IMG/VR virus record: IMGVR_UViG_3300017949_000039
Location: 1-29,598 of that record
Direction: 5' to 3' (one strand)
DNA length: 29,598 bases
Origin: a virus
Taxonomy: Duplodnaviria > Caudoviricetes
The position numbers were made by a program, and so were the translations under genes. Below, piece after piece: positions 2,398 to 21,341 of this stretch. The stretch's first letter is position 1. Every line of letters begins with the position of its first letter. The notes under the pieces are model-generated. The model was not told the origin of the DNA. It saw only the letters and a program-made list of their open reading frames with translations, and searched no databases.

Positions 2398-2419
2398 GAG
2401 TGATGATGATCAACATGGA

Positions 2420-2425
2420 TAAATA
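2420..2425 (+). promoter_or_regulatory. T4-like late promoter core (TAAATA)
   Basis: GATAAATA in the short intergenic gap, 23 nt before ATG 2449. Confidence 0.6.
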
Positions 2426-2448
2426 CTACACAACAAACGGAAACGACA

Positions 2449-5400: not shown

Positions 5401-8400
5401 ACTCTATTAATTGATATTGTAAACAATACTGCAATTACGAAAAAGAATACAACAATCAATCAATATAGAAATAGTAATGTAGCAAATTCAACAGCAAGAG
5501 ATTTTGTAACAGGACATTTGGACATAATCACAAACGCAGTCGGAGGAGACTCAACTGGAGCCGATTTACCAAATTCTACAATTACAACAATTTCTTCAAA
5601 TACAATTACAACTCTAACTGATCACGGTTTACAAGTCGGAGATATTTTCATTCCTTTAGAAACTTCAAACGGAATGACAAAAGACTTAACATATTGGGTT
5701 GAATCAATACCTGCTTCGAACCAATTAACAATTAGCACAACTTATGGCGGAAGTGCTGCTACTTTATCAAACGGTTCAGGACTAACTATTCCTGCACACA
5801 AAGTTGACATGCCAGCAGCAACGGACTCCGTAAGTAGTACAACGGCATTGATCACCGCTGCAGAGACCTTAGATGCGCAGCAAGAGGCCCTTGTAACGCT
5901 AGTTACTAACTATATTTCTACAACATATCCTACTTTAACATACAACGTTGCCAAGTGTGAAAGAGATACTAGATTAATTTTGGAAGCAGTAATGTTTGAC
6001 TTCCAGTTAAATTCTAACTTTGCAACACTTATTGCTGGAAACTCATATCTAAGATCAAGCGCGAGTGATGTGTTTGACCTAAACCAAAAAGCAGCAACTA
6101 GAGCATCATTCCAGTATTTGGCAAGTGTTATTGCAGGCGACACAGCAACATACTTGAACAGCGATGCTACGGCAGCATCAAGAGTTGCAACACTCATGGA
6201 TATGCTAGACACAGTATTTTATGGTGCATCAAACGAGGGTGCTGTTTGTGCAACTGATTCTAGAATGGCATACTATGCTAAACTTAAATTAGAACAAAAC
6301 AGAGCATTCTTGAAAGCAGAAGTTAGTGCTTACATTGATGATCAATTTACAGACACAGTAACTAATACATCAATTTCTGGAAACACAATTACAATTAGTG
6401 ATACAAGTTGGTTAAAAAGAAATACAGCAGTTAGATTTTCAGGAACGGTGTTCGGTGGTATAAGTGCAGATACAACTTATTATGTTCAAGATGTTGTTAA
6501 TACAACAACATTTACAATTGCCACAACAAGATATGCAACAACATCATTAACGCTTTCAACTGCTTCAGGTAGCATGACAGTTGCTATGTACTACAACGAA
6601 GCATTATGCCTAAGAGATGTTGACACATACATTGATGCAATTAAATGGGACCTTGAATGGGTATCTAACTACAAATCAAGATACGTTGCAAGATACTACG
6701 TTAACGCAGCACTAGGAAGCCATGAAGAAGACTTCTATTATGTAAGAAATGGTTGTGGTATTAGAAATCAAACACTTAATGGATTGAATGGTGACTTGTT
6801 ACCAGAAAACTCATACGGAACTTCGAGAGTTTCTGCAGGTGCTTATGTGTCACTAGATCCAGGTTGGGGTCCAGACGATTTCCGTACTTGGATTATTGCA
6901 CGTTCGCCATACACTCAAAACTGTACAACATTTGGTTACGGTGCAATTGGTCAAAAGATTGACGGTAACCTACATAACGGCGGTAATGACTCAATGGTGT
7001 CAAACGACTTTACACAGGTTATTAGTGACGGTATCGGTGCATGGGTAGAAAATAATGGTAGAGCAGAACTTGTGTCTGTGTTTACATATTACTCACACGT
7101 TGGTTACCTAGCAACCAATGGTGGTAGAATTAGAGGAACTAACGGTAACAACTCATACGGTGACTTTGGTTCAGTTGCAGAAGGATTCGATACAACTGAA
7201 ATTGAAGGAACTGCAATTGTTGATAACAAATTCCAATACGAAGCAACTGTTGGTTCGGTGATTACTGATGGCGCAAACCAAGTTTTACTTTTTGAATATG
7301 GAAATGCTGGCGAACAGTACACTGAAACAACGTTTGGTATATTTGGAGCAGGAGCCAATGCTTCCGTGGAAGTTGATAAAGAACTTAGAGACGGAGCAGT
7401 TCATAACGTAAGACTATTAGACAATGTTGACGATTCGACAACAGCACCTGAAGCAGAAGGAAACTTTGGTGGATTTGGTTACATAAGTAATTCTAATACC
7501 GCGCAGGGTGGTACAACAACACAAATTACCATTGCTGCTACTGATTCTGAAACTTCGACAGCATACGTTGGTATGAGAATTTATCTAACAGGTGGTACTG
7601 GTGTTGGACAATTTGGTAATATTGCTACTTACAACTCAGGAACAAAAGTTGCAACAGTAACAAAAGAATCAGATGGCTCAGCAGGATTTGATCACATACT
7701 TCCTGGAACAACTATCGCTGCACCAGATGCTTCTACAACTTATACTATTGAACCAAGACTGACGTTTACAGCACCTCCGTTTACAACGACTGCTAAAACG
7801 TTGGCTACTTCGACAACTTGGGCAGATATTGCTTACAGCAATGTTTACGAAAGTTTTGAAAACACTAGTGCTGATTCAACTTCTGGGTCTGGAACAGGCG
7901 CAGTATTTGATATTACCAAGAAAGGATCGAAGTATCTAGTAAGATTAGATAGTGGCGGAACAGGTTATGCAATTAACGATACTTTAACATTTAATGGTAC
8001 TTCGTTAAACGGTACATCAACAAATAATTTAGTATTAACTGTTACTAGTGTAAACTCAGTTACGGGTGCTATTACAGCATTTGATAAAGAAGGATTTGGA
8101 TCAGGCGGAAACTTTGTTGCACTTCCAAGTGCCAGCGGAAATACTGTAAACTACAGTAAAGATGGCACAACATGGTCAGCGGTAACAACTTTACCTGTTT
8201 CAACTACTTGGACATCGATTGCAGGTGGTAGAATTGCAACGGAAGAACTTGCAGGAACATTTATAACTGGTAGATCCTACACAATTACAGAATCAGGTGA
8301 CACACCTTGGTTAACTATTGGATCAAGTTCGATTGTTGCAGGAACAACATTTGTTGCAACAGGTCCTGGAACATTTACATCCACAGTAGGTAAGGCAACT

Positions 8401-10149
8401 CCAAACGCAGCAAGAATTATTGCAATTGCGGGCGGAGTAGGAATTGACGATACTGCATACTCAGAAGACGGTGGCGCAACATGGACTGCTGGTGGTAATT
8501 TACCTAGCACAGGCGACTGGGTTGATGTTGCATACGGCGACAGTAAATGGGTAGCAATCAAGACAGGAAGCAATGCAACTGCTGTTACCACAAATGGTGG
8601 TGCAACATGGACTGCTGGCGGAAACTTGCCTGCTTCTACAACTTGGGAAAGCGTTGCTTACGGTGGCGGCTATTGGGTAGCAATTGCAAGCGGCGGATCA
8701 AACGTTGCATATTCACTAGATAATGGCACAACATGGTCAGCGGGAACAGGCCTTTCAAGTTCAAATTGGAAATCTGTAACATACGGTAACAATAGATTCG
8801 TTGCAGTTTCAAACACTTCAGGAACCAAGGCAGCAATTTCATTAGACAAGGGTGTTAACTGGACTGAAACAACACTTCCAGCAACTAAGACTTGGAGCCA
8901 CGTTGAATATGGACAGGGTGTATTCCTTGCAGTAAATGACACTGACAACACTGGTGCTACATCACCGGATGGTCTTACATGGACTTCTAGAACACTAAGC
9001 ACAAGTGCTAACGGATTTATAGCAACTGCGTTTGGTAATCCTGATCAAACTGGTAAGTTTATTTCAATTGATGATACATCAGGAACTGTAGCAAGTGAAA
9101 CAAGCGCAGGAGCAACAACAGTTGCGAGAGCATTTGTTGCAGAAAACAAAATCTTTGCTATCAGAATACATGAACCAGGTTCAGGTTATACAACTGCACC
9201 GTCATTAACTATTACGGATCCTAATAACACATACGAAGCACCAACAAGTGTTAGATTAGCAAACGGAGTATTAGGTAATCCTTCCTTTAGAAATAGAGGA
9301 ACAGGTTATATATCAGCAAGTGCAGATATTGACACAGGCGATGGATACGCAGACTTCTATCAAAGTGGTTCATTCATTGCTGTTAGAAGATTATCTAAGG
9401 TTCCAGCAGTCGGTTCAAACGTGGTGTTTGCTCACTTACCAAACAGAGTGTTTAAACTCGTGCAGGTATTAACACTGCTCGGAGCGTATGATGGTTCGTA
9501 CACTGCATTCTTACAAATATCACCTGACATGAGTGTGTTTGATTCGCCAGAACACGGCACAGCAATAACAACAAGAATTAGATACTCTCAGGTTAGATTG
9601 ACAGGACACGATTTCCTAGATATTGGAACGGGTAACTTTACGGAAACTAACTATCCAGGAATACCAACACAAAGTCCTGTACAGGCTAATGAGACTGTTG
9701 ATAGTGGCGGCGGTAGAGTGTTCTTTACATCAACTGACCAAGACGGTAACTTTAGGGTTGGCGATTTGTTTAGTATTGAACAGTCAACTGGTGTTGCAAC
9801 GTTGAACGCTGATGCATTCAATATTTCAGGACTACAGGAACTTACATTGGGTGAAGTTACATTAGGTGGCGGATCTGCAAGTATTACTGAATTTAGTACT
9901 GATCCATTCTTTACTGAAAATAGTGATAGTATTGTTCCAACACAAAGAGCAATTAAAGCATATATTAGCTCACAAATTGGTGGTGGTGGTGCATCGTTGA
10001 ACGTTAACAGCGTGACAGCGGGCTTTATCTACATCGCAAATAACGAAATTACTACCACAACTGGTGGTATAATTGAAATGAAGGGTAAATTCAACTTCCA
10101 GGGTGGCGTTGTTGGTATGCCTTTAGCGTTTAATTACTTTTTGACATAA
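2449..10149 (+). CDS. Giant (2566 aa) multidomain virion structural/tail fibre-like protein
   Basis: N-terminal WxxxxxYxxxDxVxYGG repeats (CBM5/12-like), a pectin-lyase-like beta-helix scaffold (YYVAPNGTD...VKAGEYKE...SPYTQNCTTFG), four helical CxRD-type repeats, three small beta insert domains, Asp-box propeller repeats and the shared C-terminal domain. Confidence 0.85.
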   Translation: MAEFKLGRIRFVWKGDWTPTTQYYVDDVIRFGGRTYICAIGHVSDSEFYTDLNYNPTKWNQMSDGQSWKDEWATSTVYKINDIVKYGGLLYIANTPHTSNSSVGSGTPGTETTTGLEADQAKWDLFGEGVEWKNNWTISTRYKKNDIVRYGGTTYVANVGHTSETLASTGLEGQSSYWDVWNQGFEYKGDWTALTRYKVNDVVKEGANLYVCTVHHTATSVFGNDLSSYWSVFVKGFEYENTWSNVTVYQPGDIVRYGGNQYIARTIHDDTTPTAVGQTDWSLYSENMTFQSDWDVATSYKIGDVVNLNGYTYRAKIDAPNFSDTVTATDAGTDYFTVTDTSSLVVGWAVKFTGSTFGNVASGNHYYIKQIVSATEFTITETPGGAVFTPTTASGTMTVDAGSLPGNVVYWDRLNSGILWRGEWTDDTEYFLGDSVRYGSNAYICIQNHRAEGDDGSSIGAEGGGAANSRPDQDTSGTYWNVLSIGSDVDVLTTTGDLVYYSGAGPTRLPVGIEGQVLTSSGTIPQWTTLGKVDHVYYVAPNGTDLPAPIHGATLDMPWATIRYACEQIEKGALNPNAQHLLEMNRVFLQREVTSFIEYNVINNISPFTSAFDYDEHKCERDVGWIIDRLIWDIGHGGNLKMRAAAQTFVDALGDGPYSAESEDVPYANLSAEKDESLAAYGHLLTIIGNVLNQTDPTTAYQTPGGADSTAVALQYKDADLVAETGVYASVTSLLAIVTDTISAGDNSAIPERVVPNNIVNVKAGEYKEVLPIIVPAETCILGDELRTTKVRAASATDRPLDISDSYYSIQTLAHFSSVARDIVSGTSVTPTTGNTATQDVSWPLADDAVTGVQVSKLVDVMKHQVDYRLGTKHTATYTDPTGYNSSYLVTFGNARHLIQENKKFLQEEIIAWFAENYPNLKFGKTDTREDVGHIVDALVYDLTYGGYYQTLNAAKAYWDGEGNSSLIPDSIKGETLESHAFLRTLLIDIVNNTAITKKNTTINQYRNSNVANSTARDFVTGHLDIITNAVGGDSTGADLPNSTITTISSNTITTLTDHGLQVGDIFIPLETSNGMTKDLTYWVESIPASNQLTISTTYGGSAATLSNGSGLTIPAHKVDMPAATDSVSSTTALITAAETLDAQQEALVTLVTNYISTTYPTLTYNVAKCERDTRLILEAVMFDFQLNSNFATLIAGNSYLRSSASDVFDLNQKAATRASFQYLASVIAGDTATYLNSDATAASRVATLMDMLDTVFYGASNEGAVCATDSRMAYYAKLKLEQNRAFLKAEVSAYIDDQFTDTVTNTSISGNTITISDTSWLKRNTAVRFSGTVFGGISADTTYYVQDVVNTTTFTIATTRYATTSLTLSTASGSMTVAMYYNEALCLRDVDTYIDAIKWDLEWVSNYKSRYVARYYVNAALGSHEEDFYYVRNGCGIRNQTLNGLNGDLLPENSYGTSRVSAGAYVSLDPGWGPDDFRTWIIARSPYTQNCTTFGYGAIGQKIDGNLHNGGNDSMVSNDFTQVISDGIGAWVENNGRAELVSVFTYYSHVGYLATNGGRIRGTNGNNSYGDFGSVAEGFDTTEIEGTAIVDNKFQYEATVGSVITDGANQVLLFEYGNAGEQYTETTFGIFGAGANASVEVDKELRDGAVHNVRLLDNVDDSTTAPEAEGNFGGFGYISNSNTAQGGTTTQITIAATDSETSTAYVGMRIYLTGGTGVGQFGNIATYNSGTKVATVTKESDGSAGFDHILPGTTIAAPDASTTYTIEPRLTFTAPPFTTTAKTLATSTTWADIAYSNVYESFENTSADSTSGSGTGAVFDITKKGSKYLVRLDSGGTGYAINDTLTFNGTSLNGTSTNNLVLTVTSVNSVTGAITAFDKEGFGSGGNFVALPSASGNTVNYSKDGTTWSAVTTLPVSTTWTSIAGGRIATEELAGTFITGRSYTITESGDTPWLTIGSSSIVAGTTFVATGPGTFTSTVGKATPNAARIIAIAGGVGIDDTAYSEDGGATWTAGGNLPSTGDWVDVAYGDSKWVAIKTGSNATAVTTNGGATWTAGGNLPASTTWESVAYGGGYWVAIASGGSNVAYSLDNGTTWSAGTGLSSSNWKSVTYGNNRFVAVSNTSGTKAAISLDKGVNWTETTLPATKTWSHVEYGQGVFLAVNDTDNTGATSPDGLTWTSRTLSTSANGFIATAFGNPDQTGKFISIDDTSGTVASETSAGATTVARAFVAENKIFAIRIHEPGSGYTTAPSLTITDPNNTYEAPTSVRLANGVLGNPSFRNRGTGYISASADIDTGDGYADFYQSGSFIAVRRLSKVPAVGSNVVFAHLPNRVFKLVQVLTLLGAYDGSYTAFLQISPDMSVFDSPEHGTAITTRIRYSQVRLTGHDFLDIGTGNFTETNYPGIPTQSPVQANETVDSGGGRVFFTSTDQDGNFRVGDLFSIEQSTGVATLNADAFNISGLQELTLGEVTLGGGSASITEFSTDPFFTENSDSIVPTQRAIKAYISSQIGGGGASLNVNSVTAGFIYIANNEITTTTGGIIEMKGKFNFQGGVVGMPLAFNYFLT
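9580..9657 (+). repeat. Diverged repeat, copy 2 (copy 1 at 1801..1878)
   Basis: Same alignment as copy 1; most mismatches are at third codon positions. Confidence 0.85.
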
Positions 10150-10152
10150 ATA
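10147..10152 (+). promoter_or_regulatory. Late promoter core TAAATA overlapping the upstream stop codon
   Basis: CATAAATA followed by a GGAG Shine-Dalgarno and ATG 10171. Confidence 0.55.
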
Positions 10153-10170
10153 ACTATGGAGAACAAATAA

Positions 10171-10500
10171 ATGGCAACAGGAAGATTAGGAACACAGGAT
10201 CTGGCAGCAACGACTTATACTGCGTTGTATACTGCTCCAGCAGACACTTTTTCAGTAGTGAGTGTCAACCTGCTCAATAGAGGATCAACAGCAGTAACTT
10301 GCAGAATTGCAATTACCACTACAACTCCTCCTTCAGCACCGAGTAACGCCGAATTCATTGAATACGATGTGTCACTTTCAGGAAAAGGTGTTTTAGAAAG
10401 AACGGGTATTGTTTTGGATGCAGGTAAAATTATTAGTGTTTATGCTAGTAACACTGGAATTTCAGCAGTGTGTATGGGCATTGAAACATCTACAGCATAA
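10171..10500 (+). CDS. Small beta-rich putative virion protein (109 aa)
   Basis: GGAG SD, Thr/Ser-rich beta-strand pattern (VVSVNLLNRG...VLERTGIVL), located within the structural cluster. Confidence 0.75.
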   Translation: MATGRLGTQDLAATTYTALYTAPADTFSVVSVNLLNRGSTAVTCRIAITTTTPPSAPSNAEFIEYDVSLSGKGVLERTGIVLDAGKIISVYASNTGISAVCMGIETSTA

Positions 10501-10520
10501 TGATATTAGGAAAGTAAAAA

Positions 10521-11402
10521 ATGGCTAGAAAAGTACATGGTGGTGTAGCAGGAGGATCAGGATTAGGTGGATTAAGCGCATCCAATACTACTCTTACTGC
10601 ACAAGAAAATGCGAATATTACAATTGATCCTACAGGGACAGGTATAGTCGAATTAGATGGTCATACTTTAATGAAAAATCAAAGCGCATTGCGTTTTGGT
10701 GATGCTGACAGCACCAACTATGTAGGATTTCAAGCACCGGCAACAATCACAGGCGATTTAACTTGGGTACTACCGGATCAGGACGCAACCGCAGCAAATC
10801 AATCATTGGTATCAGATGCATCAGGTACATTAAGTTGGGTAACAACTGGCGCACAGATTACAGATGATACTTCAGGAAGTTCAGCAGAATACCTAATCTT
10901 TGGAACTGCCACAAGCGGAACATTACTTCAAGTATCAACATCAAGTTCTAAACTAACATATACTCCAAGCACGGGTGAAATTAACTGTGATGCAATGCTA
11001 GTAGATGGAACTGTAAGATCATTAAGAACAGAAGTAACACAAACCACAGCATATACTATTGCGTTGTCTGACAGAGACAAGGTGGTTAACATGAACAACG
11101 GAACGGACGTTCAGGTAATTATTCCAAATGATTCAACAACAAACTTTCCTGTGGGATCAGTGGTACACATTAACAGAACAGGTTCAGGAAACGTTACGTT
11201 AACAAAAGAAGCAGGTGTTACAGTAAACAAAGAAGGCTTAATGTTCGCAAACGAAGAATTATTAGTGAGAAAAAGAGCAGCGAATAATTGGATAGTAGTT
11301 GATCACATTCCACTCACAGCAGCAAGCGGTGGATCTCAATCACAAGCGGGCGGTTATCAAATTAGCCAGTTTAATAGTAACGGGACATACAGCGTAGAAT
11401 AA
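10521..11402 (+). CDS. Putative tail fibre/structural protein (293 aa)
   Basis: AGGA SD; fibre-type motifs LRFGDADSTNYVGFQAP, LVSDASGTLSW and the C-terminal TTAYTIALSD...IPNDSTTNFPVGSVVHI module typical of phage fibre proteins. Confidence 0.75.
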   Translation: MARKVHGGVAGGSGLGGLSASNTTLTAQENANITIDPTGTGIVELDGHTLMKNQSALRFGDADSTNYVGFQAPATITGDLTWVLPDQDATAANQSLVSDASGTLSWVTTGAQITDDTSGSSAEYLIFGTATSGTLLQVSTSSSKLTYTPSTGEINCDAMLVDGTVRSLRTEVTQTTAYTIALSDRDKVVNMNNGTDVQVIIPNDSTTNFPVGSVVHINRTGSGNVTLTKEAGVTVNKEGLMFANEELLVRKRAANNWIVVDHIPLTAASGGSQSQAGGYQISQFNSNGTYSVE

Positions 11403-11405
11403 ATA
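11400..11405 (+). promoter_or_regulatory. Late promoter core TAAATA overlapping the upstream stop codon
   Basis: AATAAATA, then AGGAG SD and ATG 11424. Confidence 0.55.
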
Positions 11406-11423
11406 TGTATACAGGAGAACATA

Positions 11424-12449
11424 ATGCCATTTATTAGTAGTATTAGAGGAAACTATGACACGCCAAAAAAAGATGGCGAGAGTATCCTTGACAAATTTGA
11501 GATTACTGGCGGTAATCAAGTATACACAGCAGGTGGATACAGAATCCACATGTTTACAGATGACGGAACATTTAGCGTAAAGGCAAAAGATCCTGCACTA
11601 CAAGGAATGCTAGGGTTAGTCAAAGGCGCACTAACCATTGAAGGAATATTCATCGGTGGTGGCGGAGCAGGTGGCGGACGCCACGGCGGCGGAGGCGGCG
11701 GAGGCGGCATGGTCGTTACCGGCGGAGCAGCACTACCAGCAGGAGACTTTACAATTGGCCGAGGTGGCGGTGGCGCACAGTCAGGAACTGATGACGTTTC
11801 CGGTAACACAACGGGCGGAAATACTACTTTCTCAGGGCCAACAATTTCAACAATCACTGCAAACGGTGGCGGACGTGGTGGTAACCACAGAAACTATCGT
11901 CCAGGACACCCAGGTGGATCGGGCGGTGGTGCATCACACCTAGGTGGTGGTGGTGGTAACAACCAAGGCGGCCAACCTTTATCCGGTACAGGTTATGGCG
12001 GACATGGCGGATCATCGGGTCCACATGGTGCAGGTGGAGGCGGCGCTGGAGGCGGCGGCCAAAACTCAGGACCATCAGGTGGTGGCTACGGCGGTAACGG
12101 AAGACAGAGTTCAATCACAGGAACAAACTATTATTGGGCAGGCGGTGCAGGCGGCGGCTGGCATCCAGGCAATGCTCCACAACCACACGGAGGCTTTGGC
12201 GGCCTAGGTGGCGGTGGCGGTGGCGGTGGCGGCCCAGCAGGACAGAACAACGGCGGTGGATCCGCACTCAACGCAGGCGCAGGTGGAGATCACAGAACCA
12301 ACGGAAACGGTGGTCAGGGTGGAACCAATACCGGCGGTGGTGGCGGTGGTGGTGCTGAAAACCCAAGCCACGGTAACTCACATCCAGGTGGTAACTCGTA
12401 CGGTGCTGCTGGTGGTCCAGGAATCGTTGTTGTAAGATACTTGTTGTAA
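11424..12449 (+). CDS. Glycine-rich (polyglycine II-type) putative adhesin/receptor-binding protein (341 aa)
   Basis: GGYRIHMFTDDGTF start motif, IGGGGAGG...GGGGGGG runs and the C-terminal GGPGIVVVRY signature of phage glycine-rich domains; AGGAG SD. Confidence 0.8.
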   Translation: MPFISSIRGNYDTPKKDGESILDKFEITGGNQVYTAGGYRIHMFTDDGTFSVKAKDPALQGMLGLVKGALTIEGIFIGGGGAGGGRHGGGGGGGGMVVTGGAALPAGDFTIGRGGGGAQSGTDDVSGNTTGGNTTFSGPTISTITANGGGRGGNHRNYRPGHPGGSGGGASHLGGGGGNNQGGQPLSGTGYGGHGGSSGPHGAGGGGAGGGGQNSGPSGGGYGGNGRQSSITGTNYYWAGGAGGGWHPGNAPQPHGGFGGLGGGGGGGGGPAGQNNGGGSALNAGAGGDHRTNGNGGQGGTNTGGGGGGGAENPSHGNSHPGGNSYGAAGGPGIVVVRYLL

Positions 12450-12481
12450 TCACAATAACTAAATCCAAAAACGGCTGACAA

Positions 12482-12487
12482 TAAATA
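12482..12487 (+). promoter_or_regulatory. Late promoter core TAAATA, 5 nt before ATG (leaderless)
   Basis: AATAAATA-TCTGT-ATG; no SD upstream. Confidence 0.6.
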
Positions 12488-12492
12488 TCTGT

Positions 12493-13143
12493 ATGGAACA
12501 GAAACAGTTTGTCACAGATTCAGCATACGCAGCCAATGCCAAAAACGATAAGGTAATATATCCTTTTGGACCACCTATATTTCAAACAACATTAACACAA
12601 GAAATAGTCCAATCTTTGCTTGACGAATCAAAAAAATTATCAGAAAAGGATGATTTTAATCATAACCTTGCCGGTAATTTGAAGTATGGAAGAAGTTATA
12701 CCTTCAGCGACGAGTATAAAACAGAAATGGAACCTGTTCTCAAGGATAAGGTTAATACATTCTTTGATATGATAAGAATGCAGTATAAGGGTGCTGTGGA
12801 TGTAGAACAGTACAAAAATATTAAGTTAGAAAGTCTTTGGGTAAACTTTAATAAGAAACACGATTTTAATCCTCCGCACGACCACAAAGGAGTTTTATCA
12901 TTTGTGATATACTGTAGCGTTCCGCAAGAAATTTTAGAAAATCAAGCAGACACAAATACACCAGTTGCGGGTAGTATTGTTTTTGAATATGGTGAAAAGA
13001 TATGCACGTTCATGCATCATTATTTTAAAGTCAATCCTTTTGATAATCTAATGCTTATATTTCCTGCAGGATTAAAACACTATGTTCCACCTTTCTGGAC
13101 AGATCATACTAGAATAAGTGTAAGTGGAAATTTTATTCTATGA
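12493..13143 (+). CDS. Putative 2OG-Fe(II) oxygenase (HxH type)
   Basis: WVNF...NPPHDH.G.LSFVIY...LIFPAGLKHYV...RISVSGNF: a double-stranded beta-helix with HxH...H metal ligands and the RxS 2OG-binding motif. Confidence 0.85.
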   Translation: MEQKQFVTDSAYAANAKNDKVIYPFGPPIFQTTLTQEIVQSLLDESKKLSEKDDFNHNLAGNLKYGRSYTFSDEYKTEMEPVLKDKVNTFFDMIRMQYKGAVDVEQYKNIKLESLWVNFNKKHDFNPPHDHKGVLSFVIYCSVPQEILENQADTNTPVAGSIVFEYGEKICTFMHHYFKVNPFDNLMLIFPAGLKHYVPPFWTDHTRISVSGNFIL

Positions 13144-13700
13144 TAAAAAACAAATTAGAATGTGTTTATCTTAAATCTAAATTTTCTGAACACGAAAAAA
13201 TAAAAAATACGCTACTTGATTTATTAGGCAATGCACCGTTTAAATCTCCTATGGTAGAAATTGCTGAAGTCAACATTACTAAGACTGATTGGTTTGATTC
13301 ACAGAACTTTGATAGACCGTGGTTCAAATATATTAAGAATTCATTAACTTCACATGCACTTGATATGTATAGAGAATTAGGCTTCGGTAGTTATAAACTA
13401 AATGAAATTTGGTTTCAGCAGTATTTAGAAAATAGTGAACACGGCTGGCACACGCATAGTGCTAATTTTACTAATGTTTATTATCTTGAATTACCAGACG
13501 ATTCACCAAGAACACAACTAATCGAACCGTATACAGGAAATAAAATAACACTAGATGTAAAAGAGGGTGACGTTGTAGTATTTCCAAGTTTTATACTTCA
13601 TAAAACACTACCTAATACAAGTGTAAATAGAAAGACAATAATATCATTTAATGTAGATGCAATCTATACCGATGATATCTACGGAAAAGGAGTTAAATAA
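13140..13700 (+). CDS. Putative 2OG-Fe(II) oxygenase (HxH type)
   Basis: WFQQY...HGWHTH...VYYL...EGDVVVFPSFILH...RKTIISFN; ATGA overlap with the previous gene. Confidence 0.85.
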   Translation: MIKNKLECVYLKSKFSEHEKIKNTLLDLLGNAPFKSPMVEIAEVNITKTDWFDSQNFDRPWFKYIKNSLTSHALDMYRELGFGSYKLNEIWFQQYLENSEHGWHTHSANFTNVYYLELPDDSPRTQLIEPYTGNKITLDVKEGDVVVFPSFILHKTLPNTSVNRKTIISFNVDAIYTDDIYGKGVK

Positions 13701-13704
13701 CAGT

Positions 13705-14091
13705 ATGCCATTTTTTAAAACAACCTACAATATTGTAGTAGACAGCGGAGAACATTTTGAATCTAAGTGGATGGATTCAAACGAATTACAATTACCACCA
13801 AAACAGGATTGGGATTATTCCAGAGAATTAAACATCGACGATGTTGATCTTTGGGAAGTTATCTACGAAGATAGTGCAACATTTGGATTATACGCTGCAT
13901 GGCTTCCGTATGCTGAGTTTTATTTGATGAGATTCGGATGGAACGAACGTCAGGGAGAATCACCTAAACTAGAAACATTTTACGGCAAAGGAGCATTACA
14001 AAGAGTTGTTAATAGAGCCAAATCATTTGGTGTTGATTTAGCAATGCACAAGCATTGGGTAGATAACGATAAAATGTGGTTATATTCTTAA
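13705..14091 (+). CDS. Hypothetical protein (128 aa), paralog of 18961..19320
   Basis: Start reassigned to ATG 13705 (TAAATA 13694-13699 lies 5 nt upstream, and AAGGAG is also present). Shares IDDxxLWExI...GxYAA.xPxxExY...ExFYG with 18961..19320. Confidence 0.75.
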   Translation: MPFFKTTYNIVVDSGEHFESKWMDSNELQLPPKQDWDYSRELNIDDVDLWEVIYEDSATFGLYAAWLPYAEFYLMRFGWNERQGESPKLETFYGKGALQRVVNRAKSFGVDLAMHKHWVDNDKMWLYS

Positions 14092-15563
14092 CTGTCTCTT
14101 AATTCAAGATGGTCTCTGATTATTGAGATCATCTTTTTATGGCCCATGGTTTCCATGGTTTCGTCTTTCTGAGCAATTTCCTTAATAACACGATCAGCAT
14201 CATCCTTGATATCTTGATTCTGCATCATGTATTCATTTAAAATTGCTTTTCTATCGAATAAATTAAGACCTTCCATCACTACGGTAAAGTTATCGTGCCA
14301 AAACAAGCAATAATCTGTTTGATCATTAAAGTTTTCTGGATTAGGAAGTTTGTTCCTCCAAATTTCTAATTTCTTTCCAAGACTATCGGGTAGTGGAGCA
14401 TTTTGTAAGTCTTTCCAAAAGGGAGTATCTTGCCTTGGTGTTATGTAATGTAACACAAGAAAGTCTCTTATGTTCTCCATAATTTTTACAAACGAATGAT
14501 TATAGGTATCAATAACCTTTTCATCATAATTGATAATCTTATAAAGCAATATAAATGCTTGTTGTATGCTAGTTCCAATCGATGATGCTTCTAACGGCTC
14601 AACAAAACTTCCGCTAAGTCCGATAGCAACACAATTCTTAATCCATGCACGATCAATATGACCTGGGTCAAACTTAAATTCTTTTCCTATATTAATTTCT
14701 TTGCCGTAAAGTTTTTCAACTTCTGCTTTTGCTTGGTCCTTGTCAATGTAATCGCTATCATAAATGTACCCATTGCCGTGCCTACCCCAGACAGGAATTC
14801 TAAATAGCCAACCTGCATCCATTGCATGCGCCAATGTCCATAGATTATATTCTGATGTGTCTTCTGTTTGGAATGTGATTGCCGCCTTCATTTTTAAAAC
14901 GTCACCAAAGGATTGCCACTTTCCTCCTAGTTTATCCATTAACAATCTTTTAAAACCTGTGGCGTCAATATAGAAATCATAATCGTATTCCATATTGTTA
15001 CCTTTTAGTTTGTCAATTTCTCCATCTTGATTTAACATAACATCTTGGATATCATCCTCATAGATTCCAATACCAGTTTTCTTAGCATGCTTGATCATGA
15101 AATCATTAAGTTTATGTGTGTTAAAGTGAAATTGATTGAATGGAGGGTTTTCTTTATTGTTTAGCCAAAATTGTTCTAGTTTGTTATTCCACAAAAGACC
15201 ACTATTTACGTAATCGATATTGTTTCCAATCTGCCTAGCGTATACGTGTGGATACAAACCCATCTTATTATTGAAAGGTTCGCCAACACTATGCAAATAA
15301 TTTTTAGGACCCCAATTAGTAAACATAATACCAGACTTGTATGTAGCATCACACTCTTTGATAATCTGATGTTGATTAATTCCTGCAAAATTCATAAAGT
15401 TGCGAAAGTGTTCAGTAGATCCTTCGCCGACTCCTACAATGCCAATGTTCTTTGAATGGACAACATCTACTTTTAAATTGCTAAGTCCCTTCTTGAGGAT
15501 TATTGCAGCAATTAATCCTGCTGTTCCTCCTCCTACAACTAATACGCTTTTTGGACTCTTCAT
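14088..15563 (-). CDS. Flavin-dependent halogenase, tryptophan halogenase (PrnA/RebH/VirX1) family
   Basis: VVGGGTAG FAD-binding motif, GVGEGS, ATYKSGI carrying the catalytic Lys equivalent, WLFRIP (variant of WxWxIP), FVEPLEASSIG and the C-terminal LHY...DTPFW. Confidence 0.9.
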   Translation of the reverse strand: MKSPKSVLVVGGGTAGLIAAIILKKGLSNLKVDVVHSKNIGIVGVGEGSTEHFRNFMNFAGINQHQIIKECDATYKSGIMFTNWGPKNYLHSVGEPFNNKMGLYPHVYARQIGNNIDYVNSGLLWNNKLEQFWLNNKENPPFNQFHFNTHKLNDFMIKHAKKTGIGIYEDDIQDVMLNQDGEIDKLKGNNMEYDYDFYIDATGFKRLLMDKLGGKWQSFGDVLKMKAAITFQTEDTSEYNLWTLAHAMDAGWLFRIPVWGRHGNGYIYDSDYIDKDQAKAEVEKLYGKEINIGKEFKFDPGHIDRAWIKNCVAIGLSGSFVEPLEASSIGTSIQQAFILLYKIINYDEKVIDTYNHSFVKIMENIRDFLVLHYITPRQDTPFWKDLQNAPLPDSLGKKLEIWRNKLPNPENFNDQTDYCLFWHDNFTVVMEGLNLFDRKAILNEYMMQNQDIKDDADRVIKEIAQKDETMETMGHKKMISIIRDHLELRDS

Positions 15564-16258
15564 AGTAAATTTTCCTTTATTTCTCTTAGTGCTAGTTTTT
15601 TGTTTTTAAAAATCCTATAGTAGTTCTCTAATTTTCTTAATGGTTGCCATATTTGATTACAGGCAAATCCATCAGCAATTAATTCTGATATTCGTTGAGT
15701 TGGTCTAAATTGTTTAAAATTAATTTTCTCGTCTGTATGAAATCTAAGATACGTAAACACTTCATCCTGTTGGATTTTAAATTCATTATAATCTTTTTTC
15801 AAGTAAAACGCAAACTCAGTATTCCTAAACCATTTTCCGATATCAAATTGACCTGCAACTATCATGCATCGTTCTGTAATATTATTATCTTCTAAATACG
15901 GATACTCATAGAAAGTAACTGGTAGGCTATCCTCTTCTGTGAAGAATAGAAAACACTGTTTGAAAGAAAACAATCTTCTCTTGATATCTCTTATATTTAC
16001 ATGCATATCAAAAAACTCTTGATCTCGATCAGGAGACCAAACTTTATCCCCATCGATCTTAAATGAATAATCGTATATAGATCTTAATGCATAAACATTT
16101 TTAAGATTCTTATTAAATGATGGACAATAGTTTAATTGTGCATTTAGATTATCTGTATCGTGCATATCTTTTTCATAGAATAATTTAGCAACAGATTCTG
16201 GTTCTTTTGCTAACATCCATTCTCTTTCTAAACTTGCCCAATATACTGTAATTGCCAT
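15560..16258 (-). CDS. Hypothetical protein (232 aa) with YCPSF motif
   Basis: Start reassigned to ATG 16258 (MAITVYW; purine-rich GAGAGAG upstream). Stop overlaps the halogenase start (ATGA). Appears distantly related to 16911..17663. Confidence 0.7.
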   Translation of the reverse strand: MAITVYWASLEREWMLAKEPESVAKLFYEKDMHDTDNLNAQLNYCPSFNKNLKNVYALRSIYDYSFKIDGDKVWSPDRDQEFFDMHVNIRDIKRRLFSFKQCFLFFTEEDSLPVTFYEYPYLEDNNITERCMIVAGQFDIGKWFRNTEFAFYLKKDYNEFKIQQDEVFTYLRFHTDEKINFKQFRPTQRISELIADGFACNQIWQPLRKLENYYRIFKNKKLALREIKENLL

Positions 16259-16272
16259 AAAATTCTCTCTCG

Positions 16273-16908
16273 TTAATACCAATCTGTTTCTGTTCTAATA
16301 ATGTATGATTTTCTATCCAACATCTTTTTGTTAATTCCTAAATTGTCTCTCTTATCAAATTTCCAATCAGCATGTGGTCCGTTCTTATCAACATAATGGA
16401 AAAATCCTTGCACATGATAATGTTTTTCCTTGGGCATGAACTTTTCTCTCCAGTGTTTAAGATCACATCCTCTATAAGCAACCATATCTCCAGGTTTTAA
16501 ATCAACTGATTCTCCTTCCATGTAAATGGGCCAATTATAGGAATTATCGTAACTATAACCAAAACAAATAGTTGTTGAAATTTCACAGGCTGGTCTATCC
16601 TTGTGTGGAATTAGTTCATCTCCGTTTCTATATACCCTAAAATACGAATAAGTTGGTGATAGTTCTAGTCCTGTATTTTTTTCCACCGCAGTTCTAACGT
16701 GTAAAAGAATAGTTTCCATTAGAGGATCTGCATATTTAGAATGTGCATCAGGAACCTGTGCATTATTACCTGCTGCATTTTTTTCAGGAGATAAATTTTG
16801 TAATTCGTCAAACAGTGCATATTGAGTAACAATATCAACAATATCTTTTGTCAATACTCCGTTAACTCTAGTATATCCTTTGTTTTTAAACTCTTTTACA
16901 TTCTCCAT
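16273..16908 (-). CDS. Putative 2OG-Fe(II) oxygenase (HxD type)
   Basis: PTYSYFRVY...LIPHKDRPACEISTT...WPIYM...PGDMVAYRGCDLKHWRE...QGFFHYV: HxD...H triad of a phage-type oxygenase family. Confidence 0.85.
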   Translation of the reverse strand: MENVKEFKNKGYTRVNGVLTKDIVDIVTQYALFDELQNLSPEKNAAGNNAQVPDAHSKYADPLMETILLHVRTAVEKNTGLELSPTYSYFRVYRNGDELIPHKDRPACEISTTICFGYSYDNSYNWPIYMEGESVDLKPGDMVAYRGCDLKHWREKFMPKEKHYHVQGFFHYVDKNGPHADWKFDKRDNLGINKKMLDRKSYIIRTETDWY

Positions 16909-16910
16909 TC

Positions 16911-17663
16911 TTACCCCCTATGGAAAGGACACTTTGAAACTTTTTTATAAATTTCTTTTTTCTTCTTGTATCCTTCATCATCTCTTATTATTAGGTTATA
17001 CACACCCGTTAACCTATTCCACTCTCTGTCGTCAACAAGATGCGTTTTTATTTCGACTTTCTTGTCAGTCAAAGGATGCAACATTATCATAGGCATTAGC
17101 GGTGGAATATTTAATACCCTTTCTTCATCCTTATTGATTACAAACATATTAATATTTGTAAAGTGTTGATATTTATAATTTACAACGGCTGGTAATACAG
17201 AAAAATGCGTAAGCATATCTCTGTGATTCCATGTCGGTTGTGTTACTAAAAAATCTACTTTCTGTTTGGTCTTAAGAACCCAAGGAGTTTCGATCTTAAT
17301 ATTCTTTCCATCAAATCCTGCAAAGTTTTCAAACTGATAAGGTGCATGCGATTTAGAAACATCAAAATCGTTGTTTGAACTCTGAAAACTATACCATCTT
17401 TCTTCCGGATCATTTTTCGAATGTATTGTAATATTAGTTTCAAACCACGAAGGCATAACAATACCCGTGGCATAGTAATCAATAAATCCAGGACAATTTT
17501 TAATTGTTCCGTGTTCCTTTCCTTCGATTGTTCTAGGAGTATTTTTCCACCAGTCGGGAATAAATTTAACTGCCTTGTCTATTTTTGCGAAGTCATAGAC
17601 ATATGGTAGATTGGTAAAGCAATCTAGTGTAACCGTTGATCTTTTAAAAAAGAAACTAAACAT
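16911..17663 (-). CDS. Hypothetical protein (250 aa) with TIKNCPGF motif
   Basis: Long ORF in the operon; PDWWK...TIKNCPGFIDY...KIETPW...LPAVVN pattern; ends in KCPFHRG. Confidence 0.75.
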   Translation of the reverse strand: MFSFFFKRSTVTLDCFTNLPYVYDFAKIDKAVKFIPDWWKNTPRTIEGKEHGTIKNCPGFIDYYATGIVMPSWFETNITIHSKNDPEERWYSFQSSNNDFDVSKSHAPYQFENFAGFDGKNIKIETPWVLKTKQKVDFLVTQPTWNHRDMLTHFSVLPAVVNYKYQHFTNINMFVINKDEERVLNIPPLMPMIMLHPLTDKKVEIKTHLVDDREWNRLTGVYNLIIRDDEGYKKKKEIYKKVSKCPFHRG

Positions 17664-17665
17664 TA

Positions 17666-18301
17666 TTAAAAATTATTTCTATCTCTAATCCAAGTTACAA
17701 GACCGTACTTGGTGCCTTGTCTTACAGGATGTGCAATGTGTGCATATGCAAAGTTTGATGGAAATAGTATCATCATTCCTGCCTGTGGTTTGATTGTAAT
17801 TCCGTAATTTGGAAACTCTAGTTCTCCGCCTTCGTAATCATCGTTTAGATATATTAATGCTGAAATAACCCTTCCGATATCAGTTGATCCGTCGTAGTGT
17901 TTTTTGTATTCCTGTCCACCAGTGTATCTTAATAGTTGATAATCTTCATGATACATTTCTTCCTCAATTCCATATCTTCTAGCATAAGGAACACTAGAAG
18001 CAAGAAGATTCATTCTCATTTGATTATGTATATTCTGACAAACCTTGCTTTCAGCCATAGTAGCCAGTTGGCTAACAGGTAAAACCATGTTTGTTCTTTG
18101 TGTACTAAAGGGTCCATTTCCAAAAGTTTCGGCCTTTGTCCAATGAACACCTGAATCTGGGTTTGCGACTTCAGCCTCTATATTTTTAATTGTTTCTAAT
18201 GGGTTGGGCCAAGCCTTTTCGTAGATGCTGATACAACCACCAACTACGCTATCGGGGGTTATTTCTCCAGGATAAAACCCTCCTATCTGGAATTGAGCCA
18301 T
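17666..18301 (-). CDS. Prolyl 4-hydroxylase-like 2OG-Fe(II) oxygenase
   Basis: LLRY..GQEYKKHYD...RVISALIYLNDDYEGGELEF...KPQAG..ILFPS...H...PV..GTKY is the P4H/2OG-FeII_Oxy_3 signature; AGGAG SD. Confidence 0.9.
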   Translation of the reverse strand: MAQFQIGGFYPGEITPDSVVGGCISIYEKAWPNPLETIKNIEAEVANPDSGVHWTKAETFGNGPFSTQRTNMVLPVSQLATMAESKVCQNIHNQMRMNLLASSVPYARRYGIEEEMYHEDYQLLRYTGGQEYKKHYDGSTDIGRVISALIYLNDDYEGGELEFPNYGITIKPQAGMMILFPSNFAYAHIAHPVRQGTKYGLVTWIRDRNNF

Positions 18302-18339
18302 TTATTCTTAATCTCCTAACTTCGCATTAACTATGCATA

Positions 18340-18347
18340 TATTTATA
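18340..18347 (-). promoter_or_regulatory. Perfect T4 late promoter TATAAATA driving the minus-strand enzyme operon
   Basis: The + strand TATTTATA at 18340-18347 reads TATAAATA on the minus strand, 38 nt upstream of ATG 18301. Confidence 0.75.
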
Positions 18348-18381
18348 GCCTGGTTCGCTCATAACTTTTAATCTTGATCAT

Positions 18382-18397
18382 TAAATAGTGATAAATA
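18382..18397 (+). promoter_or_regulatory. Tandem late promoter cores (TAAATA at 18382-18387 and 18392-18397)
   Basis: Two TAAATA 10 nt apart, upstream of a GGAG SD and ATG 18426; divergent from the 18340 promoter. Confidence 0.55.
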
Positions 18398-18425
18398 AAA
18401 GAGTATATTACGGAGCCAAAAAAAC

Positions 18426-18959
18426 ATGATAATCAAAGCAATATTTGATACAGTAAAACTTAAATGGGTTTTTGAAACAGTCAACGATAATGGTCTTGCA
18501 GAAAGATTAGATGCAATAATTGTGTCGGATGCTGAAGTAACCTTTGTAACACACGTAAAATTTGGTATTTCTGTATCTAATAAAGAGGGTGTCGTTGCCG
18601 AAACATCCTGGCCTCCAAACGGTGCAAAATGGGAAACAACTGACAAAACTCCTGTTACAAACATGCATCTTGACCTAGTTGCTGACACCGATTATGTAAT
18701 AACAACTTGGGCAAGCATTAACGATACATCCGATAGGATCACAGGAACATTTGATTATAAAAAATCAAGACCTGCACAACCTTATCCAAGTTGGACTTGG
18801 GACGGAAATACATGGGTTGCACCAACACCATCTCCTGCAACCGAAGATACATTTTATAAATGGGACGAAGCATCTACATCATGGGTTAAAATTGATAATG
18901 TTGCTTGGGCAACCGATTATAAAGATCCAGACGCAAAAAATCCAAAATTAGATACCTAG
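18426..18959 (+). CDS. Hypothetical protein with Trp/Pro-rich C-terminus (possible fibre-associated or assembly protein)
   Basis: PAQPYPSWTWDGNTWVAPTPSP...YKWDEASTSW resembles small proteins that commonly accompany phage Gly-rich fibre genes; GGAG SD. Confidence 0.7.
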   Translation: MIIKAIFDTVKLKWVFETVNDNGLAERLDAIIVSDAEVTFVTHVKFGISVSNKEGVVAETSWPPNGAKWETTDKTPVTNMHLDLVADTDYVITTWASINDTSDRITGTFDYKKSRPAQPYPSWTWDGNTWVAPTPSPATEDTFYKWDEASTSWVKIDNVAWATDYKDPDAKNPKLDT

Positions 18960-18960
18960 T

Positions 18961-19320
18961 ATGTCTCTGTTTAAAGACACTGAGGAAATATTCAACAATC
19001 CTTGGGACCTTGCAGTAAAGGTAGCAGCAGTAAATAACAGACCAATGTTTACGGATTGGAACGATCGGCAAGTTCCTTCCATCGACGATATTAGTTTATG
19101 GGAACAAATTTCATACACTCCTGGTAGTATCGGAATCTACGCTGCACACAATCCTATGTATGAAATGTACATAATCACACACGACCTATATCTTGATAAA
19201 AATTACTGCGAAATTTTTTACGGTGAAAATGCTGCTGACGAAGTATATGACAGAGCTAGAAAATTAGGTGTGGAAATCGAACTTAAGAAGCTCTGGAAAG
19301 TTAGCCCCACTTTAGCATAA
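18961..19320 (+). CDS. Hypothetical protein (119 aa), paralog of 13705..14091
   Basis: IDDISLWEQI...GIYAAHNPMYEMY...EIFYGENA aligns with IDDVDLWEVI...GLYAAWLPYAEFY...ETFYGKGA. Confidence 0.75.
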   Translation: MSLFKDTEEIFNNPWDLAVKVAAVNNRPMFTDWNDRQVPSIDDISLWEQISYTPGSIGIYAAHNPMYEMYIITHDLYLDKNYCEIFYGENAADEVYDRARKLGVEIELKKLWKVSPTLA

Positions 19321-20694: not shown

Positions 20695-20971
20695 TAGAAA
20701 GTTTTTTTCCGTTTTCAAAGTCTAATAATTTAGAATCTAAAAATTTTCGTATGTCGGATATCTTGCTTCTAGAATCGTTACTATTAGATCCTATCTGTTT
20801 ACTATAAATCATTTCTTCGAACTGTGAGTCAAGAGATTTAACTATAGATTCTAATTTACTAAGTTGATTTTCTAAATTAGTTTTTAATCTTAGATCGTCA
20901 ACTTTGGAAATTCTGTCTCTAAAGGAACGAACTTCATTCTGAAATTTTTCTGATTTATATAGCGATAGCAT
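20687..20971 (-). CDS. Hypothetical helical/coiled-coil protein (94 aa)
   Basis: GGAG SD, heptad-like Leu/Ile pattern, coupled to the upstream gene. Confidence 0.65.
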   Translation of the reverse strand: MLSLYKSEKFQNEVRSFRDRISKVDDLRLKTNLENQLSKLESIVKSLDSQFEEMIYSKQIGSNSNDSRSKISDIRKFLDSKLLDFENGKKLSIK

Positions 20972-21341
20972 CCTCTAACTCCAATACTGTTTCAATTTTA
21001 GTTCTTATTAAATTATTATTTAATGTGCTCTTTAACCCCACATGAACATTCTTGGGGAGATAATCCAAATCAGCCCAACAATATGTTGCTACAGTTCTTG
21101 TTAAAAATTCTTCATTTACTAGGCAAATGTATGTTCCATATTCGAACCCCTTGTCCTTGGAAAGATAAAGTTCTATAGGTAAAATCTTGCCCTCAGCAAA
21201 TTTTTTTTGCACATCCTTACTGTCTTCGATCACTGATTTTTCTTTTGAGAATGTAGGAACAGTCCACTTATCGTTTTCTAATATAAGTAGAATTCTTCTT
21301 GTTGATAAAGAAAGATATAATAGTCCTACACGTTTTTGCAT
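20955..21341 (-). CDS. Nudix-fold-like protein lacking an intact Nudix box
   Basis: GLLYLS..TRRILL...W.VP, IELYLSKDKGFEYGTYICLVNEEF, YCW...LPKNVHVGL resemble the Nudix scaffold, but GX5EX7REUXEE is absent. Confidence 0.55.
   Translation of the reverse strand: MQKRVGLLYLSLSTRRILLILENDKWTVPTFSKEKSVIEDSKDVQKKFAEGKILPIELYLSKDKGFEYGTYICLVNEEFLTRTVATYCWADLDYLPKNVHVGLKSTLNNNLIRTKIETVLELEDAIAI

Follow-up and report, generated by a model that had tools for sequence, protein, structure and literature searches.

The cassette and its products

This study focused on a cassette of enzyme genes lying among the tail fiber genes of the viral record IMGVR_UViG_3300017949_000039, of which positions 1 to 29,598 were analyzed (the window; 29.6 kb). 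The phage is uncultured, and its gene content was that of a T4-like myophage, with fiber genes (70-11402) followed by the cassette and then by a wedge/connector-like gene, gp15, gp13, a deoxynucleoside monophosphate (dNMP) kinase gene, and a sheath-like gene. The cassette lies behind the gene of a Gly-rich protein of fiber-tip type (11424; genes are named by their lower coordinate), which is considered here as a candidate substrate of the enzymes, and is arranged in three arms, 12493-14091 (plus strand), 18301-14088 (minus strand), and 18426-19320 (plus strand). Its features are listed in Table 1.

Table 1. Genes and sequence elements of the cassette, in window coordinates.
Feature	Position	Strand	Remarks
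TAAATA late-type element	11400..11405	+	upstream of Gly-rich tip gene 11424; overlaps stop codon of 10521
Gly-rich fiber-tip-type protein, candidate substrate	11424..12449	+	341 aa, 126 Gly, 12 His; phrog_2295
His247 codon	12162..12164	+	immediately past polyglycine stretch; column covarying with halogenase presence
TAAATA	12482..12487	+	11 nt 5' of 12493 start
2OG-Fe(II) oxygenase, HxH type	12493..13143	+	PF13759; TIGR02466-like, under its cut-off
2OG-Fe(II) oxygenase, HxH type	13140..13700	+	PF13759
Paralog 1, family without known function	13705..14091	+	own TAAATA at 13694
Flavin-dependent halogenase, Trp-halogenase family	14088..15563	-	PF04820; catalytic motifs kept
CP-motif protein	15560..16258	-	phrog_17480; by HMM same superfamily as 16911
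2OG-Fe(II) oxygenase, Syn9-gp54 / HKDRP type	16273..16908	-	PHROG label 'ferrochelatase' (phrog_2954)
dUTPase/dCTP-deaminase-fold protein (predicted), Syn9 gp43 family	16911..17663	-	invariant Cys57, His106, Lys123, His208
2OG-Fe(II) oxygenase, prolyl-4-hydroxylase-like	17666..18301	-	PF13640
Perfect TATAAATA	18340..18347	-	heads five-gene minus-strand arm; 2 occurrences in window
'MAHFA' family, partner of Gly-rich tips, likely assembly chaperone	18426..18959	+	TAAATA at 18382, 18392
Paralog 2, family without known function	18961..19320	+	similarity to 13705
aa, amino acids; nt, nucleotides; 2OG, 2-oxoglutarate; HMM, hidden Markov model.

The four oxygenases of three types reported in a first-pass annotation of this DNA were all recovered, each with a metal-binding motif. 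The products of 12493 (H129-x-H131..H196) and 13140 (H104-x-H106..H154) matched PF13759 and phrog_81, that of 16273 (H102-K-D104..H152) matched phrog_2954, and that of 17666 (H135-x-D137..H188) matched PF13640, with bacterial prolyl 4-hydroxylases (P4H) as its best PDB matches (E 5e-8). The 'ferrochelatase' label of phrog_2954 was rejected for 16273, as searches of Pfam and NCBIfam gave no match and the protein, with its HxD..H triad, is similar to PF13640, the family of its nearest named Atlas clusters; its sole PDB match was a P4H-domain protein (E 0.085). Ecological papers count phrog_2954 as a heme-related auxiliary metabolic gene (AMG), although it looks like a 2OG-Fe(II) oxygenase, and its HKDRPSCEI motif occurs in an estimated ~2600 IMG/VR stretches. 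In the SAR11 myophage Mosig, genes annotated as heme oxygenase and PcyA adjoin the end of the oxygenase array (L706:11984-13220; L-numbers are codes of the related loci compared).

The halogenase, likewise confirmed as a member of the Trp-halogenase family (PF04820, E 4e-95), retained the hallmarks of flavin-dependent halogenases, namely a GxGxxG motif (GGGTAG, 11-16), the catalytic lysine (K76), a WxWxIP-type motif (WLFRIP at 252, with Phe replacing the second Trp), and the active-site glutamate (FVEPLE at 320). Its PDB matches included PrnA, RebH, and VirX1 (6qgm).

The putative fiber tip and its partner proteins

A profile of the 11424 family (A4) matched the tail fiber of phage Pam3 (7yfw/7ypx), although the match to 7yfw (E 3.8e-5) is compositionally biased (bias 55). 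The protein has polyglycine motifs and a closing GxIxVxY strand, as expected of Gly-rich fiber tips, and four of five tested relatives passed the PF21722 cut-off, while 11424 itself gave no match to that family. In Pam3, the Gly-rich domain has a conserved stem and a hypervariable, receptor-binding distal tip, and is folded with a chaperone (PMC9608196). Because of the Pam3 profile match, 11424 is read as a putative receptor-binding tip of the virion.

The product of 18426 belongs to the tip-following 'MAHFA' family (HMM, 79 bits), which was found within 3 kb of Gly-rich tips at 15/44 loci but at 0/63 control loci (samples defined below). At two related loci (L182, L104) tip and partner genes are direct neighbors, none of the enzymes intervening. 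In the window the enzyme genes lie between tip 11424 and partner 18426. A role of 18426 as assembly chaperone is likely.

The paralog pair 13705 and 18961, also correctly identified at first pass, shares 33% identity over 88 aa (E 1e-14). The 13705 family has 160 relatives, and its model (predicted local distance difference test score, pLDDT, 92) found no PDB match at Z >= 5 (best 4.4), no usable Atlas match, and two BFVD matches, both from uncultured phages. The gene directly upstream of a family member was a tip gene in 18/48 cases, and this may be a second family of tip partners. At loci with two Gly-rich tip genes (L025, L030, L537), a member lies behind each.

Late-type promoter motifs

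In the window, a TAAATA/TATAAATA-type motif was present 5' of most structural genes, against a background of 3.2% per 80 nt. The first-pass statement that the arms of the cassette begin at late-type elements was borne out for the minus strand (TATAAATA, 18347-18340) and the plus strand (TAAATA, 12482), except that there are three arms and not two. The pattern was followed across 190 loci of the clade (de-duplicated by their first 40 residues, but still related), counting TAAATA within 80 nt. The motif preceded 42/72 divergent enzyme-arm heads (background 4.1%), 7/32 enzyme genes lying behind a same-strand non-enzyme gene, and 15/221 internal enzyme genes; the controls gave 23/23 for sheath, 33/35 for gp14-like, and 1/27 for dNMP kinase genes. 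Gly-rich tip genes had a TAAATA of their own in only 7/29 cases. T4-type late motifs were thus found at the heads of late operons, and the cassette genes would, judging from these motifs, be expressed late in the window phage.

In Syn9, Syn10, S-RIM44, and P-TIM40 the motif lies 5' of a tip gene and of the partner gene. It does not precede the halogenase gene in these phages, as would be expected if transcription reads through from the tip operon. The halogenase of S-H38, and the stand-alone ones of P-SSM2, S-SCSM2R, and S-PM2, have no TAAATA. The one measured timing found was for a different phage, pelagiphage HTVC027P, whose gp73, a 2OG oxygenase three genes behind a tail-collar gene, has been classed as Late (PMC12753301). 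The public runs that best matched the window were salt-marsh metagenomes, and four of these may be where the DNA came from; salt-marsh RNA contigs gave scattered coverage of cassette and structural genes that is uninformative on timing, strand, or level, and was not used as support. Counts of sigma-70 promoters and terminators in the window equaled shuffled expectation, and an Rfam search gave no match.

At several genes TAAATA begins only 10-14 nt 5' of the start codon (12482, 13694, 19572, and 24318 on the plus strand; 26425 and 24298 on the minus strand). No ribosome-binding site is evident in this interval, which suggests leaderless late transcripts in the clade.

Linkage of the enzymes to the fiber-tip slot

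Loci were sampled from several anchors. With the neutral gene 20955 as anchor, 160 loci were obtained, and where 5 kb or more of downstream sequence was present the slot held oxygenase, halogenase, and CP genes in varying combinations. The anchor itself (20955-21341) is a strongly conserved core gene of the clade, with 2265 relatives and no Pfam or PHROG match, and is a useful marker of the jumbo-phage group. The G+C content at third codon positions of the cassette was similar to that of its flanks, so there was no sign of a very recent foreign origin.

The first-pass annotation had proposed testing for co-occurrence of such enzymes with Gly-rich genes. From 134 loci with the tip C-terminal motif, 44 were kept (3 kb downstream, non-redundant, Gly-rich), and 63 loci (from 120) with an S74 fiber motif served as controls. 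An oxygenase lay within 3 kb behind 15/44 Gly-rich tips but only 4/63 S74-type fibers (p 5e-4), while a halogenase was found at 1/44 and a CP gene at 0/44 tip loci. In the reverse direction, ~120 loci with an HKDR-type oxygenase were reduced to 42, of which 41 carried another oxygenase; a Gly-rich tip lay within 4 kb upstream in 7/42, against 0/55 controls, and within 6 kb in 3/25 against 1/48, which is not significant. With gene 10171 as anchor, 40 loci of the clade comprised 20 with tip and enzymes, one with tip only, eight with enzymes only, and 11 with neither, and a halogenase was present at 12/21 of those with a tip versus 0/19 of those without.

The array therefore accompanies the tip slot, and not strictly the Gly-rich tip family. 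A strict rule that the enzymes need a Gly-rich tip was discarded, as 37/37 Kelch-like tips (recognized by repeats and a weak Pfam match) lay near oxygenases, most of them from the oxygenase-anchored sample. Other phages have a carbamoyltransferase, a glycosyltransferase family 9 (GT9)-like protein, or a sulfotransferase in this slot. At four further loci of the clade (L507, L516, L530, L533), for example, the tips 3' of the 10171 ortholog are rich in cysteine (8-10%) and are accompanied by carbamoyltransferase and GT9-like genes, in several instances without an oxygenase within 10 kb. Five podovirus-like contigs (L607, L639, L644, L649, L652) have 3-5 oxygenases, sometimes with a sulfotransferase, behind Kelch-like tips, and also carry a conserved, unannotated protein of ~225 aa in front of the oxygenases.

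Tip composition and enzyme content

If the tip protein were the substrate, its composition would be expected to covary with enzyme content, as was observed. The comparison used 112 filtered tips, reduced to 69 by clustering at 75% identity, and scored as halogenase-positive when a halogenase lay within 9 kb. At least four histidines in the last 200 residues were found in 27/30 tips with a halogenase and 1/39 without, a difference that neighboring control proteins did not show. The column of His247 (window numbering) held histidine in 21/30 halogenase-linked tips versus 1/38 others, or 6/9 versus 0/22 when counted by hand-drawn lineages, and within the window clade the histidine association, counted per locus, was 12/15 versus 1/9 (p 0.002).

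In a FastTree reconstruction of 62 halogenases, from which two long rows were excluded, that of the window fell in a starred 10-row clade; tips were visible at eight of those loci, and 16/16 of their tips had a histidine just past the polyglycine rod. The halogenases of three His-poor cases, L097, HTVC008M, and L021 (one of its three), grouped apart in a starred clade of their own, pointing to another target for these enzymes. The members of this subclade, which accompanies His-poor tips, include the L097 halogenase, L006:9905-11299, and the 680-aa halogenase of L021, and their target residue may differ.

Cultured phages outside the set of 69 agreed where a halogenase adjoins the tips. Halogenase-adjacent tips of S-H38, Syn9 (gp38), S-RIM44, and P-TIM40 have 6-12 histidines, and the three upstream of the 530-aa Syn10 halogenase, which we take to be VirX1, have 11, 11, and 4, while tips of the halogenase-free HTVC023P and Mosig have 0-3. 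Proline behaved similarly for the oxygenases, averaging 14.0 in halogenase-free tips with oxygenases and 5.7 in those without (24 vs 15 tips; p 0.024 at the level of lineages). Among the target residues named at first pass, histidine, and proline for the oxygenases, thus gained support, but the shift in tryptophan was weak. Tryptophan was ranked lower as the main halogenase target, being rare in the tip (2 of 341 residues), with W246 unconserved (Phe in L012).

The His-rich tips also invite another explanation, in which they bind a metal or small ligand, acting like a Ferrojan horse or imitating a siderophore; the enzymes would then make this ligand and leave the protein itself unmodified. Iron-binding phage fibers have been reported, and bacterial relatives of the enzymes adjoin TonB receptors (PMC2938197), but no ligand-assembly genes occur within the window, and the covariation of proline with oxygenases, together with a P4H-like enzyme, points to a polypeptide. 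We rate this explanation as distinctly improbable.

The CP-motif proteins and a possible nucleotide chemistry

Both CP-motif proteins noted earlier are present. They showed no likeness by BLASTP but cross-matched by HMM (29-37 bits); 16911 groups with Syn9 gp43 in a shared HMM, and 15560 is a distant relative. One pattern, a weak probe, found no relative of the CP family in GTDB genomes. The model of 16911 (pLDDT 95) has the predicted beta-clip fold of trimeric dUTPases and dCTP deaminases (Foldseek E 3e-4; Z 9.0, root-mean-square deviation 2.9, 125 aligned residues), with 7-14% identity to its top structural matches and no Pfam dUTPase match. Its motif-3 region reads LPAVVNYKY and looks replaced when set against the reference dUTPase motif, the Asp of which appears to be absent.

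This predicted fold favors a role in nucleotide or DNA chemistry or in general metabolic support, as AMGs are usually read, with the oxygenases repairing or modifying bases and the dUTPase-fold proteins handling modified nucleotides; DNA repair or host metabolic roles have indeed been proposed for such genes (PMC9146016, PMC9599517, PMC11561400). The invariant residues of 16911 are, however, Cys, His, and Lys, with the motif-3 Asp apparently missing; late-type motifs stand at the arm heads, the cassette lies among tail genes, and the covariation with the tip would be left unexplained. We consider such a role improbable.

Proposed tailoring of the fiber tip

The first-pass annotation had suggested late tailoring of virion proteins, and the promoter statistics, the placement in the fiber-tip slot relative to controls, and the covariation of tip composition with the enzymes all speak for it, as do the Pam3 match of the tip family, the carbamoyltransferase, GT9-like, and sulfotransferase genes that occupy the slot in other phages, and the large, accessible active site of VirX1 (PMC8407142). 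The cassette type was already known (2010). That the enzymes carry out late, post-translational tailoring of fiber tip 11424 is, on this sequence-based evidence, a proposition for which we see about even chances. The enzyme genes would be placed for this by their position in a variable fiber-tip slot behind late-type promoter motifs. The halogenase probably acts on histidine, with His247 as the predicted site, and the prolyl-hydroxylase-like oxygenase 17666 probably acts on a proline of the tip; additional groups on the same tip loops could be attached or processed by the other oxygenases (HxH and HKDRP types), the Cys proteins of dUTPase fold, and the paralog pair. Modification would take place before or during chaperone-assisted folding, tuning receptor binding or stability, and reduced flavin would have to be supplied by the host cell or by a part of the phage genome outside the window. 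Within the open-licence literature, which is the scope of all literature negatives given here, neither a proposal nor a test of virion hydroxylation or halogenation was found, nor any natural substrate of VirX1.

A number of observations weigh against tip tailoring. As to linkage, an oxygenase is lacking within 3 kb of 29/44 Gly-rich tips in the sample, most HKDR arrays sit behind Kelch-like tips, the halogenases of three loci (L528, L562, L579) accompany tips of other types, and P-SSM2, S-SCSM2R, and S-PM2 carry a halogenase with no tip detected by profiles A4 or A6, the latter used without a positive control (the halogenases of P-SSM2 and S-SCSM2R fall in the parent clade of that of the window). 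As to phylogeny, a single phage clade contributes 29/30 halogenase-positive tips, only 7/66 branches of the tip tree were starred, and a formal independent-pairs test had one usable pair (p 1); among the closest kin, the MPF-type tips, those with halogenase have 10, 2, and 1 histidines, against 0-4 in eight without. The cultured positives were chosen by hand, not blind, and most belong to one tip lineage already in the set of 69. A whole-record check of 35 halogenase-negative loci found a halogenase in one, most records being fragments. Arginine (7.8 vs 4.1), aspartate, and glutamate are enriched too, so that His-rich tips may be merely another receptor class. Finally, flavin halogenases are not known to act on protein histidine, and none that does appeared among the literature matches listed.

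Island co-inheritance or a shared host could also yield the histidine pattern. The enzymes would then have a job of their own, making or altering a small molecule or a component of the host surface (for instance in superinfection exclusion), and would travel with His-rich tips as one inherited block or through fit to the same host. Metabolite synthesis was what Iyer et al. proposed for the Syn9 array (PMC2938197); the slot is hypervariable, with whole modules swapped, and the stand-alone halogenases and the single usable pair of the formal test are as this explanation would have it. Relatives of the window phage span 260-364 kb, the clade being a jumbo-phage group, and related contigs of ~33 kb were rated ~9% complete, so that, the window being 29.6 kb, most of the genome (~90%) is unseen. 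The first-pass remark that nonribosomal peptide synthetase, polyketide synthase, and precursor-supply genes are lacking holds for the window, and to that extent counts against a small-molecule product. The histidine enrichment is moreover restricted to the tip, is focused on particular columns, and is seen again in cyanophages and in more than one lineage of tips, several in all. We regard separate functions as unlikely, though a serious contender to tailoring of the tip.

Extended beyond this locus, tip tailoring would amount to a widespread post-translational code on the receptor-binding tips of aquatic phages, with halogenases acting on the histidines that end polyglycine rods, as predicted here for His247 and, in the case of VirX1, for the His-rich Syn10 tips, and 2OG oxygenases on prolines. 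The oxygenases, 'ferrochelatases', and halogenases that phages encode in their thousands as 'AMGs' would in that case serve virion maturation and shape the host range. This generalization is offered tentatively, as a possibility somewhat short of an even chance. Few phage genes are counted as AMGs more often than those for 2OG oxygenases, 'ferrochelatases', and halogenases, and no established substrate for these enzymes was found in the papers searched, while the covariation described here points to one substrate protein and one residue, a prediction accessible through cultured phages and purified VirX1. If it is true, a large class of AMGs would be reclassified as virion-tailoring enzymes and a protein-histidine halogenase gained; if false, the locus is another island of the Syn9 type.

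Comparison with known systems

Pam3 gp24 and its chaperone gp25 share with the window the Gly-rich-domain profile match, the C-terminal GxIxVxY, and the pairing of tip and partner genes, but the N-terminal part of gp24 is unlike 11424, and the parts of the Pam3 account available mention no modifying enzymes (PMC9608196). Hydroxylation of such proteins has a predicted bacterial counterpart in beta-hydroxylase/sulfotransferase operons, where tail-collar or collagen-like Gly-rich proteins are predicted as hydroxylase substrates (PMC2938197), although those operons are bacterial, with other oxygenase families and no halogenase.

In pelagiphages, clusters of '2OG oxygenase + ferrochelatase' have been treated as metabolic AMGs (PMC9599517, PMC11561400), and like the window they place the phrog_2954 family next to other oxygenases. 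HTVC023P (L701, gp59-gp67) has four Pro-rich Gly tips, a MAHFA partner, a 167-aa gene of unknown function, and three oxygenases, in that order; no halogenase was found in it, and this cultured SAR11 phage is a ready model for the oxygenase half of the system. For the halogenase half, VirX1 of Syn10 (PDB 6qgm) is of the same family as the window enzyme (E 1.5e-47) and has a large, accessible active site (PMC8407142), but the window halogenase is only 29% identical to Syn10 CPUG_00131 and belongs to another subclade.

The closest parallel is the dioxygenase/Trp-halogenase/dUTPase-fold array of Syn9 (gp41-gp54), for which secondary-metabolite synthesis was proposed by Iyer et al. in 2010, with no mention of tips in the parts of that paper available (PMC2938197). 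Both combine 2OG-Fe(II) dioxygenases of several unrelated kinds, the gp54 (HKDR) type among them, with a Trp-halogenase-family gene and a dUTPase-fold protein with a conserved Cys, in one cluster immediately behind Gly-rich tip genes. Syn9 gp39 (L007:6606-7784) has an internal repeat and an odd C-terminus, possibly from an assembly artifact or duplication, where its Syn10 counterpart is a clean tip of 272 aa. The window array is smaller (four oxygenases, one halogenase, and two CP proteins), lies in a jumbo-phage clade in three divergent arms, and includes the 13705/18961 family; no cassette gene matched a model seeded with the JmjC (MINA/No66) member gp49, as was also the case in many relatives. 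The cassette adds a further member to a type of array first described in 2010; the new part is a quantified, residue-level prediction.

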